Below are positions 29,909 to 48,429 of a DNA stretch of 64,000 bases, piece by piece. The number at the start of each line of letters is the position of its first letter. Within the stretch, counting starts at the first letter, position 1. The position numbers and the translations under genes are program-made. The stretch is from the NCBI RefSeq assembly GCF_044647545.1, contig NZ_CP172818.1; one strand, given 5' to 3'. The notes under the pieces are model-generated. The model was given only the letters and a program-made list of their open reading frames with translations, made no database searches and was not told the origin of the DNA. Origin of the DNA: Escherichia coli (GTDB lineage Bacteria > Pseudomonadota > Gammaproteobacteria > Enterobacterales > Enterobacteriaceae).

Positions 29909-31342
29909 ATGAAGCAAGGTTTGCAACTCAGGCTTAGCCAACAACTGGCGATGACGCCACAGCTCCAACAGGCAATTCGTCTGTTGCAGTTGTCGACGCT
30001 GGAACTTCAGCAGGAGCTACAGCAGGCGCTGGAGAGTAATCCGCTGCTTGAGCAAATCGACACTCATGAAGAAATCGACACCCGCGAAACGCAAGACAGT
30101 GAAACACTGGACACCGCCGACGCGCTCGAACAAAAAGAGATGCCGGAAGAGCTGCCGCTCGATGCCAGTTGGGACACCATTTACACCGCTGGTACACCAT
30201 CCGGCACCAGCGGTGACTACATTGACGACGAGCTGCCGGTCTATCAGGGCGAAACGACGCAGACCTTGCAGGATTACCTGATGTGGCAGGTCGAGTTGAC
30301 ACCGTTTTCCGACACTGACCGCGCTATTGCTACCTCTATCGTCGATGCCGTTGATGACACTGGTTATCTGACTGTCCCGCTGGAAGATATTCTCGAAAGT
30401 ATGGGCGATGAAGAGATTGACATCGACGAAGTTGAAGCCGTCCTTAAGCGGATCCAACGGTTTGATCCGGTCGGTGTGGCGGCAAAAGATCTGCGTGACT
30501 GCCTGCTGATCCAACTCTCCCAATTCGATAAAACCACGCCGTGGCTGGAAGAGGCCAGACTGATTATTAGCGATCATCTCGATCTGTTAGCCAATCACGA
30601 CTTCCGCACTTTAATGCGCGTCACGCGTCTGAAAGAAGATGTGCTGAAAGAAGCCGTCAATCTGATCCAGTCGCTCGATCCGCGCCCCGGGCAGTCGATC
30701 CAGACTGGCGAACCTGAGTATGTCATTCCAGATGTGCTGGTGCGTAAGCATAACGGTCACTGGACGGTAGAACTCAACAGTGACAGCATTCCGCGTCTGC
30801 AAATCAACCAGCACTACGCCTCGATGTGCAATAACGCGCGCAACGATGGTGACAGCCAGTTTATCCGCAGCAATCTGCAGGATGCCAAATGGTTGATCAA
30901 GAGTCTGGAAAGCCGTAACGATACGCTACTGCGCGTGAGTCGCTGTATCGTTGAACAGCAGCAAGCCTTCTTTGAGCAAGGTGAAGAATATATGAAACCG
31001 ATGGTACTGGCCGATATCGCCCAGGCTGTCGAAATGCATGAATCGACGATATCTCGCGTGACCACGCAAAAATACCTGCATAGTCCACGAGGCATTTTTG
31101 AACTGAAGTATTTCTTTTCCAGTCACGTCAATACCGAGGGCGGCGGCGAAGCTTCCTCCACGGCGATTCGTGCGCTGGTGAAGAAATTAATCGCGGCGGA
31201 AAACCCAGCGAAACCGTTGAGCGACAGCAAGTTAACCTCTTTGCTGTCGGAACAAGGTATCATGGTGGCACGCCGCACTGTTGCGAAGTACCGAGAGTCT
31301 TTATCCATTCCGCCGTCAAACCAGCGTAAACAGCTCGTTTGA
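29909..31342 (+). CDS. rpoN: RNA polymerase sigma-54 factor
   Basis: 477-aa [52 protein letters not shown]... with C-terminal RpoN box [10 protein letters not shown]. Confidence 0.95.
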
Positions 31343-31364
31343 CCCAACCGATAAGGAAGACACT

Positions 31365-31652
31365 ATGCAGCTCAACATTACCGGAAATAACGTCGAGATC
31401 ACCGAGGCACTGCGCGAATTTGTTACAGCCAAATTTGCCAAACTTGAGCAATATTTTGACCGAATCAACCAGGTCTATGTTGTTCTGAAAGTGGAGAAAG
31501 TCACCCACACCTCAGATGCAACACTGCATGTAAACGGTGGTGAAATTCATGCCAGCGCGGAAGGTCAGGACATGTACGCTGCCATTGATGGCTTAATTGA
31601 TAAGCTGGCACGCCAGTTGACCAAACATAAAGATAAACTGAAACAACACTAA
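31365..31652 (+). CDS. hpf: Ribosome hibernation promoting factor
   Basis: ORF contains MQLNITGNNVEITEALREFVTAKFAKLEQYFDRINQVYVVLKVEKVTHTSDATLHVNGGEIHASAEGQDMYAAIDGLIDKLARQLTKHKDKLKQH; start at ATG 31365 (95 aa). Confidence 0.9.
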   Translation: MQLNITGNNVEITEALREFVTAKFAKLEQYFDRINQVYVVLKVEKVTHTSDATLHVNGGEIHASAEGQDMYAAIDGLIDKLARQLTKHKDKLKQH

Positions 31653-31769
31653 TTGTCCGGGCAATTAGCATGTGCATGGCGGCCTGTTGTGCGGCACAAC
31701 GGGCCATTTGTACGGTTAATGCTCCGAGCCTGTTCCACTGTTTGAGTGGGCAGGTTCTTAGGTGAAATT

Positions 31770-32261
31770 ATGACAAATAATGATACAACTCTACAGCTTA
31801 GCAGTGTTCTTAACAGGGAATGTACGCGAAGCCGCGTCCACTGTCAGAGCAAAAAACGCGCCCTGGAAATCATCAGCGAGCTGGCGGCGAAACAACTTAG
31901 CCTGCCGCCTCAGGTGGTTTTTGAAGCTATCCTGACGCGGGAAAAAATGGGCAGTACCGGTATCGGCAATGGTATTGCCATTCCGCATGGCAAACTGGAA
32001 GAAGATACTCTGCGTGCCGTTGGCGTTTTCGTTCAGCTCGAAACGCCTATAGCTTTCGATGCCATCGACAACCAACCGGTGGATTTACTTTTTGCCCTGC
32101 TGGTGCCGGCAGACCAAACTAAAACGCACCTGCATACTCTGTCACTGGTGGCGAAACGTCTGGCGGACAAAACCATCTGCCGCCGTTTACGCGCAGCCCA
32201 GAGCGATGAAGAGCTGTATCAAATCATTACGGATACCGAAGGTACTCCGGATGAAGCGTAG
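31770..32261 (+). CDS. ptsN: Nitrogen-related PTS EIIA-Ntr protein PtsN
   Basis: ORF ...MTNNDTTLQLSSVLNRECTRSRVHCQSKKRALEIISELAAKQLSLPPQVVFEAILTREKMGSTGIGNGIAIPHGKLEED...; start moved to MTNND (163 aa). Confidence 0.9.
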   Translation: MTNNDTTLQLSSVLNRECTRSRVHCQSKKRALEIISELAAKQLSLPPQVVFEAILTREKMGSTGIGNGIAIPHGKLEEDTLRAVGVFVQLETPIAFDAIDNQPVDLLFALLVPADQTKTHLHTLSLVAKRLADKTICRRLRAAQSDEELYQIITDTEGTPDEA

Positions 32262-32306
32262 TTATTCGGTAATGTCTCTTTTAGACGTTGTGAGGAGAAA
32301 CAGTAC

Positions 32307-33161
32307 ATGGTACTGATGATCGTCAGCGGACGTTCAGGTTCAGGTAAATCTGTCGCCCTGCGTGCGCTGGAAGATATGGGTTTTTACTGCGTGGATAACC
32401 TTCCCGTAGTGTTGTTACCCGATCTGGCTCGAACTCTGGCCGATCGCGAGATTTCTGCCGCCGTCAGCATTGATGTTCGTAATATGCCGGAGTCACCAGA
32501 AATATTCGAACAGGCGATGAGTAACCTGCCTGACGCTTTCTCACCGCAACTACTGTTCCTGGATGCCGACCGTAATACCTTAATTCGTCGTTACAGTGAC
32601 ACGCGCCGACTGCATCCGCTTTCCAGCAAAAACCTGTCGCTGGAAAGTGCTATCGACAAAGAAAGCGATTTGCTGGAGCCTCTGCGTTCGCGAGCGGATC
32701 TGATTGTCGATACCTCAGAAATGTCCGTTCACGAGCTGGCTGAAATGCTGCGTACCCGTCTGCTGGGTAAACGTGAACGCGAACTGACCATGGTCTTTGA
32801 GTCTTTTGGCTTCAAACACGGTATCCCTATCGATGCAGATTACGTCTTTGACGTGCGCTTCTTGCCGAACCCGCACTGGGATCCGAAACTGCGTCCAATG
32901 ACAGGTCTGGATAAGCCTGTCGCCGCGTTCCTCGACCGCCACACAGAAGTACACAATTTTATCTACCAGACGCGAAGCTATCTTGAGCTATGGTTACCTA
33001 TGCTGGAAACCAACAACCGTAGCTACCTGACGGTCGCCATTGGTTGTACCGGCGGGAAGCACCGTTCGGTGTATATTGCAGAGCAACTGGCAGACTACTT
33101 CCGCTCGCGCGGTAAAAACGTCCAGTCACGCCATCGTACGCTGGAAAAACGCAAACCATGA
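32307..33161 (+). CDS. rapZ: RNase adapter protein RapZ (YhbJ)
   Basis: 284-aa [75 protein letters not shown]... with P-loop GRSGSGKS. Confidence 0.9.
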
Positions 33162-45788: not shown

Positions 45789-45909
45789 GGTGTTCTGGAA
45801 AGCGCCTCGCATAATCTGAAGAAAACCAATGTAATACGCACATCTGGATTGTTACCGGCCGATGCAGATCCCGGCGTATAGCTGATTCCATTATTCAACA
45901 CTGCGCCAT

Positions 45910-47037
45910 ATGAAGGGACAGATAATGGAATCGCTCTCAGAAGGAACCACAGCAGGCTACCAGCAAATCCACGACGGCATTATTCATCTGGTCGATAGCG
46001 CCCGGACGGAAACGGTACGTAGTGTTAACGCGTTAATGACCGCCACATACTGGGAAATTGGCCGACAAATTGTCGAATTTGAACAAGGTGGCGAGACCAG
46101 GGCTGCGTATGGTGCGCAGCTAATCAAGCGACTATCAAAGGATTTAAGTCTAAGGTATAAGCGTGGGTTTTCCACCAGGAATTTATGGCAGTTTAAGAAT
46201 TTTTATATTTGTTTTCAACGAATTGAAATTGTGCAGACACTGTCTGCACAATTCACCCCCACAATTCGCCAGACACTATCTGGCGAATCTTGCCATTTAG
46301 CGCAACTTGCCAAATCTTTCCCCCTGCCCTGGTCCACTTACGTCCGTTTGCTTTCTGTTAAAAACGCTGACGCTCGTAGCTTTTATGAGAAAGAAACACT
46401 CCGCTGTGGCTGGTCTGCTCGTCAGCTCGAACGGCAAATTGCGACCCAATTTTATGAGCGGACACTACTGTCACATGACAAATCAGCCATGCTGCAACAA
46501 CACGCTCCTGCCGAGACGCATATTCTTCCGCAACGGGCGATACGCGATCCCTTTGTGCTCGAATTTCTGGAATTGAAAGATGAATATTCAGAATCCGATT
46601 TTGAGGAGGCGCTGATCAACCACCTGATGGATTTCATGCTGGAACTTGGGGATGATTTTGCCTTTGTTAGTCGACAGCGAAGGTTACGCATTGATGACAA
46701 CTGGTTTCGTGTCGATCTGCTGTTTTTCCACCGCCGTTTACGCTGCCTGCTAATCGTCGATCTAAAAGTGGGCAAATTCAGCTATAGCGATGCCGGACAG
46801 ATGAATATGTATCTCAACTACGCCAAAGAGCACTGGACGCTACCGGATGAAAATCCGCCCATCGGTCTGATTCTCTGTGCAGAGAAAGGAGTCGGAGAAG
46901 CGCATTATGCACTGGCTGGTTTACCTAACACCGTTCTGGCGAGTGAATATAAGATGCAACTACCTGATGAAAAACGACTCGCGGATGAACTCGTTCGAAC
47001 ACAGGCGGTGTTAGAGGAAGGCTATAGACGCCGTTAA
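45910..47037 (+). CDS. yhcG: DUF1016 / PD-(D/E)XK nuclease-superfamily protein YhcG
   Basis: 375-aa ORF MKGQIMESLSEGTTAGYQQIHDGIIHLVDSARTETVRS...; C-terminal region has restriction-endonuclease-like D...(E/D)xK spacing (RVDLLFF, IVDLKVGKF); alternative start at ATG 45925 (MESLSEG). Confidence 0.8.
   Translation: MKGQIMESLSEGTTAGYQQIHDGIIHLVDSARTETVRSVNALMTATYWEIGRQIVEFEQGGETRAAYGAQLIKRLSKDLSLRYKRGFSTRNLWQFKNFYICFQRIEIVQTLSAQFTPTIRQTLSGESCHLAQLAKSFPLPWSTYVRLLSVKNADARSFYEKETLRCGWSARQLERQIATQFYERTLLSHDKSAMLQQHAPAETHILPQRAIRDPFVLEFLELKDEYSESDFEEALINHLMDFMLELGDDFAFVSRQRRLRIDDNWFRVDLLFFHRRLRCLLIVDLKVGKFSYSDAGQMNMYLNYAKEHWTLPDENPPIGLILCAEKGVGEAHYALAGLPNTVLASEYKMQLPDEKRLADELVRTQAVLEEGYRRR
46227..46253. 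repeat. 27-bp palindrome, copy 1 (inside yhcG CDS)
   Basis: aattgtgcagaca-c-tgtctgcacaatt: perfect 13-bp arms around a single central base. Confidence 0.7.
46263..46289. repeat. 27-bp palindrome, copy 2 (inside yhcG CDS, 9 bp after copy 1)
   Basis: aattcgccagaca-c-tatctggcgaatc: 11 of 13 arm positions complementary; same AATT....CAGACAC core as copies 1 and 3. Confidence 0.7.
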
Positions 47038-47051
47038 TTTCAGCGGTTTCG

Positions 47052-47078
47052 AATTCTCCAGACACTGTCTGGAGAATC
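47052..47078. repeat. 27-bp palindrome, copy 3 (14 bp downstream of yhcG stop)
   Basis: aattctccagaca-c-tgtctggagaatc: 12 of 13 arm positions complementary; differs from copy 2 by compensatory changes (cgcc/ggcg to ctcc/ggag). Confidence 0.7.
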
Positions 47079-47096
47079 TTTAAAACGAACTAAGTT

Positions 47097-48429
<1,333 letters not shown>

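Follow-up and report, generated by a model that had tools for sequence, protein, structure and literature searches.

Several classes of hairpin have been described in polycistronic transcripts. Intercistronic stabilisers of mRNA are represented by the REP hairpins of malE-malF in E. coli and by the hairpins of the Rhodobacter puf operon. RNase III processing hairpins are known from the R1.1-type sites of phage T7, from rpsO-pnp and from the rnc leader, and coupling structures that mask a Shine-Dalgarno sequence are known from the MS2 coat-replicase transcript and the E. coli infC-rpmI-rplT operon. The mRNAs of hibernation factors also possess structured UTRs, such as the stabilising structures of the rmf mRNA and the 3'-UTR of raiA, from which the sRNA RaiZ is derived.

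Here we report a conserved intercistronic mRNA hairpin from the rpoN operon, in which sigma-54 is encoded together with a ribosome hibernation factor and the three regulators PtsN, RapZ and NPr. The amounts of the products of this operon bear on potassium balance, cell-envelope synthesis and the timing of virulence in Salmonella. The hairpin lies between hpf and ptsN and is previously undescribed but ordinary in type, as elements of this kind are found in many operons, and it suggests no new principle. The spacer carries no annotated feature in complete E. coli genomes, and the published statements on it consist of a primer-extension 'start site' alone.

The hpf-ptsN spacer in E. coli

The window, that is the whole stretch of DNA analysed here, comprises 64,000 nucleotides of an Escherichia coli contig (NZ_CP172818.1, assembly GCF_044647545.1), and the gene order at the locus is lptC-lptA-lptB-rpoN-hpf-ptsN-rapZ-npr. 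The original prediction had placed a 15-bp perfect palindrome between hpf and ptsN within the rpoN operon. The sequence and coordinates of this palindrome were exact, and the RefSeq gene identities agreed with its location in the intercistronic spacer (Table 1). The true start of hpf is an ATG, a longer ORF beginning with TTG having been rejected. At the rpoN operon, MG1655 coordinates are obtained by adding 3,314,808 to those of the window. The spacer was found as a single copy in 5425 of 5426 complete E. coli genomes at an identity of at least 95%, and a search for other copies within the window, with up to 3 mismatches allowed, returned the self-match only. Membership in the REP, BIME or ERIC repeat families was rejected, as the median number of places found by blastn at E <= 10 in an E. 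coli genome was 1.

Table 1. Features of the hpf-ptsN region, in window coordinates
Feature	Position	Strand	Remarks
hpf (ribosome hibernation-promoting factor) CDS	31365..31652	+	MG1655 3346173-3346460; stop TAA 31650-31652
hpf-ptsN intercistronic spacer, 117 nt	31653..31769	+	nearly all base-paired in predicted RNA
Hairpin 1, 66 nt, imperfect	31659..31724	+	predicted fold and covariation; begins 7 nt past hpf stop codon
Hairpin 1 upper stem, 11 bp	31681..31705	+	arms 31681-31691 / 31695-31705, loop CGG 31692-31694
15-bp perfect palindrome GTTGTGC-G-GCACAAC	31686..31700	+	exact sequence match
Site equivalent to Salmonella 5' end	31702..31703	+	inside 3' arm of upper stem; PMC6456747
Hairpin 2, 32 nt	31726..31757	+	predicted fold; ends 2 nt before ptsN Shine-Dalgarno
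ptsN Shine-Dalgarno AGGTG	31760..31764	+	inside block GCTTAGGTGAAATT, near-identical across Enterobacteriaceae
ptsN (EIIA-Ntr) CDS	31770..32261	+	start ATG 31770; RefSeq annotation agrees

Elsewhere in the window, two perfect palindromes stand 826 nt apart, at 46227-46253 (AATTGTGCAGACACTGTCTGCACAATT) and 47053-47077 (ATTCTCCAGACACTGTCTGGAGAAT), and share the core CAGACACTGTCTG. The former lies inside a yhcG-like gene (PDDEXK nuclease, 45910-47037) and the latter in the gap between converging genes, ahead of a yhcH-like gene (DUF386). The MG1655 offset of the rpoN operon fails at 45900-47600, where MG1655 has gltF and yhcA and the window has yhcG and yhcH; the strain of the window therefore differs from K-12 in gene content somewhere between ~34 kb and 46 kb.

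Predicted fold of the spacer

The inverted repeat is longer than first noted, with 12-nt arms GGCCTGTTGTGC and GCACAACGGGCC (31681-31705) whose single T/G position gives a U.G wobble in RNA. By itself the palindrome is within chance expectation, as perfect palindromes of this form (7-bp arms around 1 nt) number 7 in the window and 4.3 +/- 2.2 in shuffles. RNA folding, which had been proposed as a check, gave -55.2 kcal/mol for the whole spacer as compared to -37.2 +/- 3.6 kcal/mol for dinucleotide shuffles (z = -5.06), and 0 of 200 shuffles were as stable. We judge the structure of the spacer to be beyond chance because of this z score and, decisively, because of the cross-species covariation described below.

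The anticipated stem-loop is present, but the palindrome forms only the tip of the 66-nt hairpin 1, and a second hairpin (hairpin 2) stands alongside it. Hairpin 1 is built of lower stems (~16 pairs), an internal loop and, above it, an 11-bp upper stem with a loop of 3 nt at its tip, amounting to ~27 bp in total, and the upper stem is GC-rich with GGCC/GGCC at its base. In the predicted fold, the only unpaired parts of the spacer are the ~6 nt past the hpf stop codon and the ptsN ribosome-binding site. A search of 31300-32000 for Rfam families (cmscan, E <= 10) returned three hits at chance level (E 2.3-8.4), all scoring far under the gathering thresholds and all lying outside hairpin 1, and assignment to an Rfam family was rejected.

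Conservation across Enterobacterales

Through a scan for PtsN we obtained hpf-ptsN spacers from 80 Enterobacteriaceae species. They fall into length classes of 54-57, 66, 80-83 and 115-125 nt, and all of them have a TTGTCCGGGC-like beginning and a GCTTAGGTGAAATT-like end with a hairpin between. The flanks UUGUCCGGGC (after the hpf stop; 31653-31662) and GCUUAGGUGAAAUU (the ptsN ribosome-binding site; 31755-31769) are near-identical across Enterobacteriaceae. The sequence of the stem depends on the genus: its arms are GGCCUGUUGUG / CACAACRGGCC in Escherichia, Salmonella, Citrobacter and Enterobacter, AACCUGCUGUG / CGCAGCAGGUU in Pseudescherichia, CACCCUACCG / CGGUAGGGUG in Kosakonia, GCCAACCGC / GCGGUUGGC in Klebsiella and CGCCCGAUAUGC / GCAUAUCGGGCG in Kluyvera. 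A strong hairpin was nevertheless predicted in all 66 of the 66 distinct Enterobacteriaceae spacers (z about -1.6 to -6.9 against shuffles).

The 52 distinct Enterobacteriaceae spacers of at least 80 nt were aligned with MAFFT, and RNAalifold recovered the hairpin from this alignment. Over 23 pairs, 97.4% of the 1196 cells were paired, as compared to 31-44% when the 3' partners were slid by 1-3 columns. Both sides of a pair had changed in 93 cells as compared to 22 +/- 4 in shuffles, and the covariation score of 0.362 (0.234 in shuffles) was reached by 0 of 500 shuffles. The helix of the palindrome itself (columns 39-47 / 56-64) was 99.6% paired, with compensatory double changes in six of its nine pairs. 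Among the 38 sequences with the E. coli-type stem, the column entropy of the upper stem (0.09 bits) was similar to that of codon positions 1-2 of hpf and ptsN (0.04-0.13 bits), and that of the terminal loop (0.79 bits) to that of their third codon positions (0.81-0.90 bits). The original prediction had named lack of conservation and absence of a nearby processing site as grounds for dismissing the element. Neither held, as the stem is kept by compensatory changes across the 52 sequences and a 5' end mapped in Salmonella falls inside it (discussed below).

In hairpin 2, double changes were found in 3 of the 7 basal pairs. The ~35-nt segment that contains it (window 31722-31759) occurs only in Escherichia, Salmonella, Intestinirhabdus and some Citrobacter; in the C. 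freundii group, Enterobacter and others, GCGCT is joined directly to TAGGTG and the hairpin 2 segment is missing. The distribution points to a lineage-specific gain or loss and, since the segment covaries as a hairpin, it is a structured module that would have been gained or lost.

Further contigs were located via PtsN homologues. A central hairpin of 10-14 bp, unrelated in sequence, occupies the matching place in Yersinia, Dickeya, Erwinia, Pantoea, Rahnella, Brenneria, Shimwellia and K. pneumoniae. The spacers of these eight taxa measure 70-177 nt with z of -2.4 to -6.4, and in none of the eight is the hairpin followed by a proper U-tract. The flanks UUGUCCGGGC and GCUUAGGUGAAAUU and their pairing are not kept in Yersinia, Dickeya and Erwinia. 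Thus, whatever its length (54-177 nt), the spacer is folded in every lineage sampled.

A few gene calls around these spacers deserve mention. The database calls of ptsN start at an upstream GTG in Yersinia rohdei (L082, 801-813, VKDEMIND...) and in Rahnella (L086, 801-861, VTFGERAD...MIND...), the real start according to the PtsN alignment being 4 and 20 codons downstream, respectively. Two others, P0001 (Shigella flexneri, 224 aa) and P0028 (282 aa), combine the HPF domain PF02482 with the PtsN domain PF00359 in one gene call, and these apparent hpf-ptsN fusions through the spacer are probably frameshifts or assembly errors.

Sense-strand structure

In 73 of 75 spacers the predicted fold of the sense strand was more stable than that of the reverse complement, with means of -38.6 and -29.3 kcal/mol, respectively, and the antisense strand of the E. 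coli spacer reached -33.7 kcal/mol against the -55.2 kcal/mol of the sense strand. The advantage of the sense strand arises because 17% of the pairs in the 75 spacers are G.U. Variation within E. coli is of the same kind. In K-12 MG1655 and in strain 005008 the substitution C31683T replaces C-G by U.G in the upper stem, and in other E. coli strains G31714A and G31728A each turn a G.U pair into A-U. The inverted repeat in the DNA is less perfect in K-12 than in the strain of the window, owing to C31683T.

Compensatory substitutions across species were found on the transcribed strand, as is characteristic of a conserved cis-acting mRNA structure in the generic sense. The comparisons show that the palindrome tops a sense-strand structure that evolution has maintained in the rpoN-hpf-ptsN-rapZ-npr mRNA, and that the object under selection is the sense-strand helix of this mRNA. 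Of the two options raised in the original prediction, an RNA stem-loop in the polycistronic rpoN-operon mRNA is therefore the one backed by the covariation and the sense-strand asymmetry. The other, a protein-binding site on the DNA, is not supported, in view of G.U pairs that form in the sense RNA only, of arms that are replaced wholesale between genera and of the variable loop. Since the loop is free to vary in addition to the G.U pairing and the replacement of the arms, the hairpin is not a symmetric operator in the DNA, nor a site at which a protein would recognise the loop.

Proposed role in the operon mRNA

With regard to its role, the hairpin is most likely a passive element, a structured joint within the mRNA of the operon that would affect its stability or processing, a tentative reading to which we would assign a little less than an even chance. 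It is proposed because selection acts on pairing and stability and not on sequence or loop, and because the spacer is folded in every lineage. The duplex block would deny RNase E and Rho single-stranded entry in a long untranslated spacer, could act as a barrier against 3'-to-5' exonucleases arriving from the ptsN side, and might possibly undergo double-strand-specific processing. In this way the segments carrying hpf and ptsN-rapZ-npr would get separate fates, and the 5' end in the 3' arm in Salmonella would be either a processing product or a stop of reverse transcriptase at the stem.

The spacer is G-rich (G 37, C 25) and is not rut-like. As in stabiliser hairpins, a stable hairpin is found downstream of the upstream cistron. 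With regard to an upstream RNA species ending at the hairpin, the curated Term-seq lists, which are thresholded, contain no such 3' end; as a major exonuclease barrier should leave a 3' end at the base of the hairpin, this counts against a strong barrier role. Passive shielding is hard to tell from other structural roles by sequence analysis alone. The structure, compensated Enterobacterales-wide, provides a concrete and mutable target for tests of a post-transcriptional uncoupling of hpf and ptsN.

Possible control of ptsN translation

The hairpin could instead control the translation of ptsN, which we regard as unlikely. According to this explanation, the base of the hairpin would pair the conserved CCGGGC, past the hpf stop, with GCUUAGG of the ptsN Shine-Dalgarno region, and terminating ribosomes would melt this base and thereby expose the ptsN ribosome-binding site, or else the hairpin would aid re-initiation by proximity. 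The start of the hairpin is always 4-7 nt past the stop codon and thus within reach of the terminating ribosome, and the near-identity of the flanks UUGUCCGGGC and GCUUAGGUGAAAUU across Enterobacteriaceae is accompanied by half-compensatory changes in which G.U becomes A-U or G-C (pairs 17/84 and 18/83). Where hairpin 2 is missing, the minimum-energy fold of every genus joins C5-C6 of the spacer to the GG of AGGUG, at an ensemble probability of ~0.6. However, the probability of this CC-GG pairing is 0.00 in E. coli, Salmonella and the other long-spacer species because hairpin 2 intervenes, and outside Enterobacteriaceae the hairpin is kept whereas the flanks are not.

With a ribosome modelled on the hpf stop, the median accessibility of the Shine-Dalgarno sequence did not rise in any of three classes, changing from 0.34 to 0.31, from 0.49 to 0.30 and from 0.49 to 0.35, and the native E. 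coli spacer was equal to shuffled or deleted spacers in the accessibility of the ribosome-binding site. Both unmasking of the Shine-Dalgarno sequence and insulation of the ribosome-binding site were rejected as partition-function modelling gave no effect.

Possible RNase III processing and the 5' end reported in Salmonella

Choi et al. (PMC6456747) used primer extension in Salmonella to locate a 5' end at a 'G' 67 nt before the ptsN start codon, which they took to be a transcription start. On the 117-nt spacers of Salmonella (L023 and L028) this end maps to a GGG at positions -66 to -68, within CAACGGGCC; the mapping uses the subspecies arizonae and diarizonae and assumes a spacer of equal length in SL1344. 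The position suggests that the GC clamp of the stem stopped reverse transcriptase, or that the 5' end arose by processing, and not that a promoter starts there. The reported ptsN start site may thus be a stem-induced artefact or a processing product.

A processed end could be made by RNase III if the two-tier hairpin (~27 bp) were its substrate, or the hairpin could be the target of a ProQ-like binder of duplexes or hairpins; in either case the operon mRNA would be split and the Salmonella 5' end produced. We consider this rather improbable. The 11-bp upper stem, asymmetric internal loop and long lower stem of E. coli and Salmonella resemble phage T7-type sites, the Salmonella 5' end falls in duplex RNA, which RNase E would leave uncut, and RNase III sites have been reported to be enriched in intergenic regions within transcripts. 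Against these points, hpf and ptsN are not named in the main text of the RNase III study of Altuvia, nor in the supplementary tables of Gordon on E. coli RNase III, which are possibly incomplete or locus-tagged. The helix also stays below the ~20 bp of an RNase III substrate in several taxa (~16 bp in Pantoea and ~15 bp in Brenneria), and a literature search turned up no reports of binding by ProQ or another protein. Likewise, hpf and ptsN are unnamed in the Salmonella RNase E (TIER-seq) supplementary tables, which are possibly incomplete or locus-tagged, and in the SMRT-Cappable-seq supplements.

We also hold it doubtful that the hairpin would be a dedicated double-strand-specific processing switch splitting the rpoN-operon mRNA between hpf and ptsN, with the Salmonella 'ptsN promoter' as its processing site. 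If true, the hibernation factor and the PTS-Ntr/RapZ regulators would be uncoupled after transcription. A CsrA site was considered separately and rejected, as CsrA is reported not to regulate hpf fusions and a GGA is not conserved in the loop.

Transcription through the hairpin

RNA polymerase reads through the hairpin, which is not an intrinsic terminator. The sequence 3' of the upper stem is AUUUGUAC, with 4 U in 8 nt, and a scan requiring 5 T in 8 found no U-tract or intrinsic terminator at the stem, bearing out the earlier remark that no U-run follows it. In the predicted fold this tail is itself paired in the lower stem of hairpin 1. The curated and thresholded Term-seq tables of Adams et al. 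(PMC7815308) contain no 3' end and no Rho region in MG1655 3346000-3346899 under three conditions, and no entry naming hpf, ptsN, rpoN or rapZ. Over-expression of sigma-E, which drives the upstream lptA promoter, raised rpoN 2.4-fold, hpf 2.2-fold, ptsN 2.3-fold and yhbJ 2.7-fold; the induction is similar on both sides of the spacer and transcription therefore reads through. The missing U-tract, the Term-seq tables and the equal induction of hpf and ptsN all agree with the original view that an intrinsic terminator was unlikely.

A leaky form of terminator or attenuator is also very unlikely. In such a case the GC-rich upper stem together with AUUUGU would stop some polymerases and yield more rpoN-hpf than ptsN-rapZ-npr transcript, for which one may point to the 11-bp GC-rich stem being followed by the 4 U of AUUUGUAC and to the UUUUACC that follows the hairpin in Pantoea. 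However, the E. coli tail fails the scan, its U-containing part is locked in the lower stem and the tail is not U-rich in other genera, besides which no Term-seq 3' end was listed under the three conditions and the induction by sigma-E is equal upstream and downstream.

DNA-level explanations

It is highly improbable that the element works at the level of DNA, either as an operator for a dimeric DNA-binding protein or as part of an internal ptsN promoter at the G at -67. The primer-extension 5' end of Salmonella lies there and a ptsN-lacZ transcriptional fusion is active, yet the activity of the fusion may arise within hpf. A perfect 15-bp palindrome would suit an operator, but the G.U pairs spoil the symmetry of the DNA, K-12 included. 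A sigma-54-like TGGC...TTGT is found upstream in E. coli, though with a spacing off by one, and its bases are missing in Salmonella and Enterobacter; a sigma-54 promoter was rejected on these grounds. A sigma-70 promoter was rejected as well: no sigma-70-like match is present on the + strand anywhere in 31000-32400, and the would-be -10 falls on the hypervariable loop and the covarying 5' arm, which changes by compensation and keeps no hexamer. Finally, a chance palindrome without function has next to no probability since, although palindromes of this size are about as frequent as in shuffles (7 against 4.3 +/- 2.2), chance is refuted by the covariation, the strand asymmetry, the constraint on stem versus loop and the independent hairpins in other families.

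Comparison with known systems

The GC-rich hairpin with its 11-bp stem and triloop is similar to Rho-independent terminators but differs from them in having no U-tract, in that its downstream segment is paired and in being read through. In genera that lack hairpin 2 it shares with the masking structures of MS2 and infC-rpmI-rplT a base that is predicted to bind the GG of the ptsN Shine-Dalgarno sequence, close to the terminating ribosome; unlike in those systems, masking is not predicted in E. coli and Salmonella and the modelled unmasking is absent. As in rmf and raiA-RaiZ, a strong conserved hairpin follows a hibernation-factor gene. The hpf hairpin, however, is inside an operon and not at the end of a transcript, has no Rfam match beyond chance level and has no terminator to release an sRNA.

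The RNase III hairpins of T7 R1.1, rpsO-pnp and the rnc leader resemble it in their two-tier intercistronic form with an internal loop, and the mapped Salmonella 5' end inside the double-stranded 3' arm would be in line with such processing. In contrast to them, the hpf-ptsN hairpin is unnamed in the parts of the RNase III data sets consulted, and some of its helices are too short for a classical substrate. Compared with the stabilisers of malE-malF and puf, the hpf-ptsN hairpin differs in being single-copy and not REP and in that a protected 3' end is unseen in E. coli Term-seq, but it is like them in being a stable stem-loop without a U-tract, situated in a polycistronic spacer just past the upstream stop codon, with selection acting on structure over sequence.
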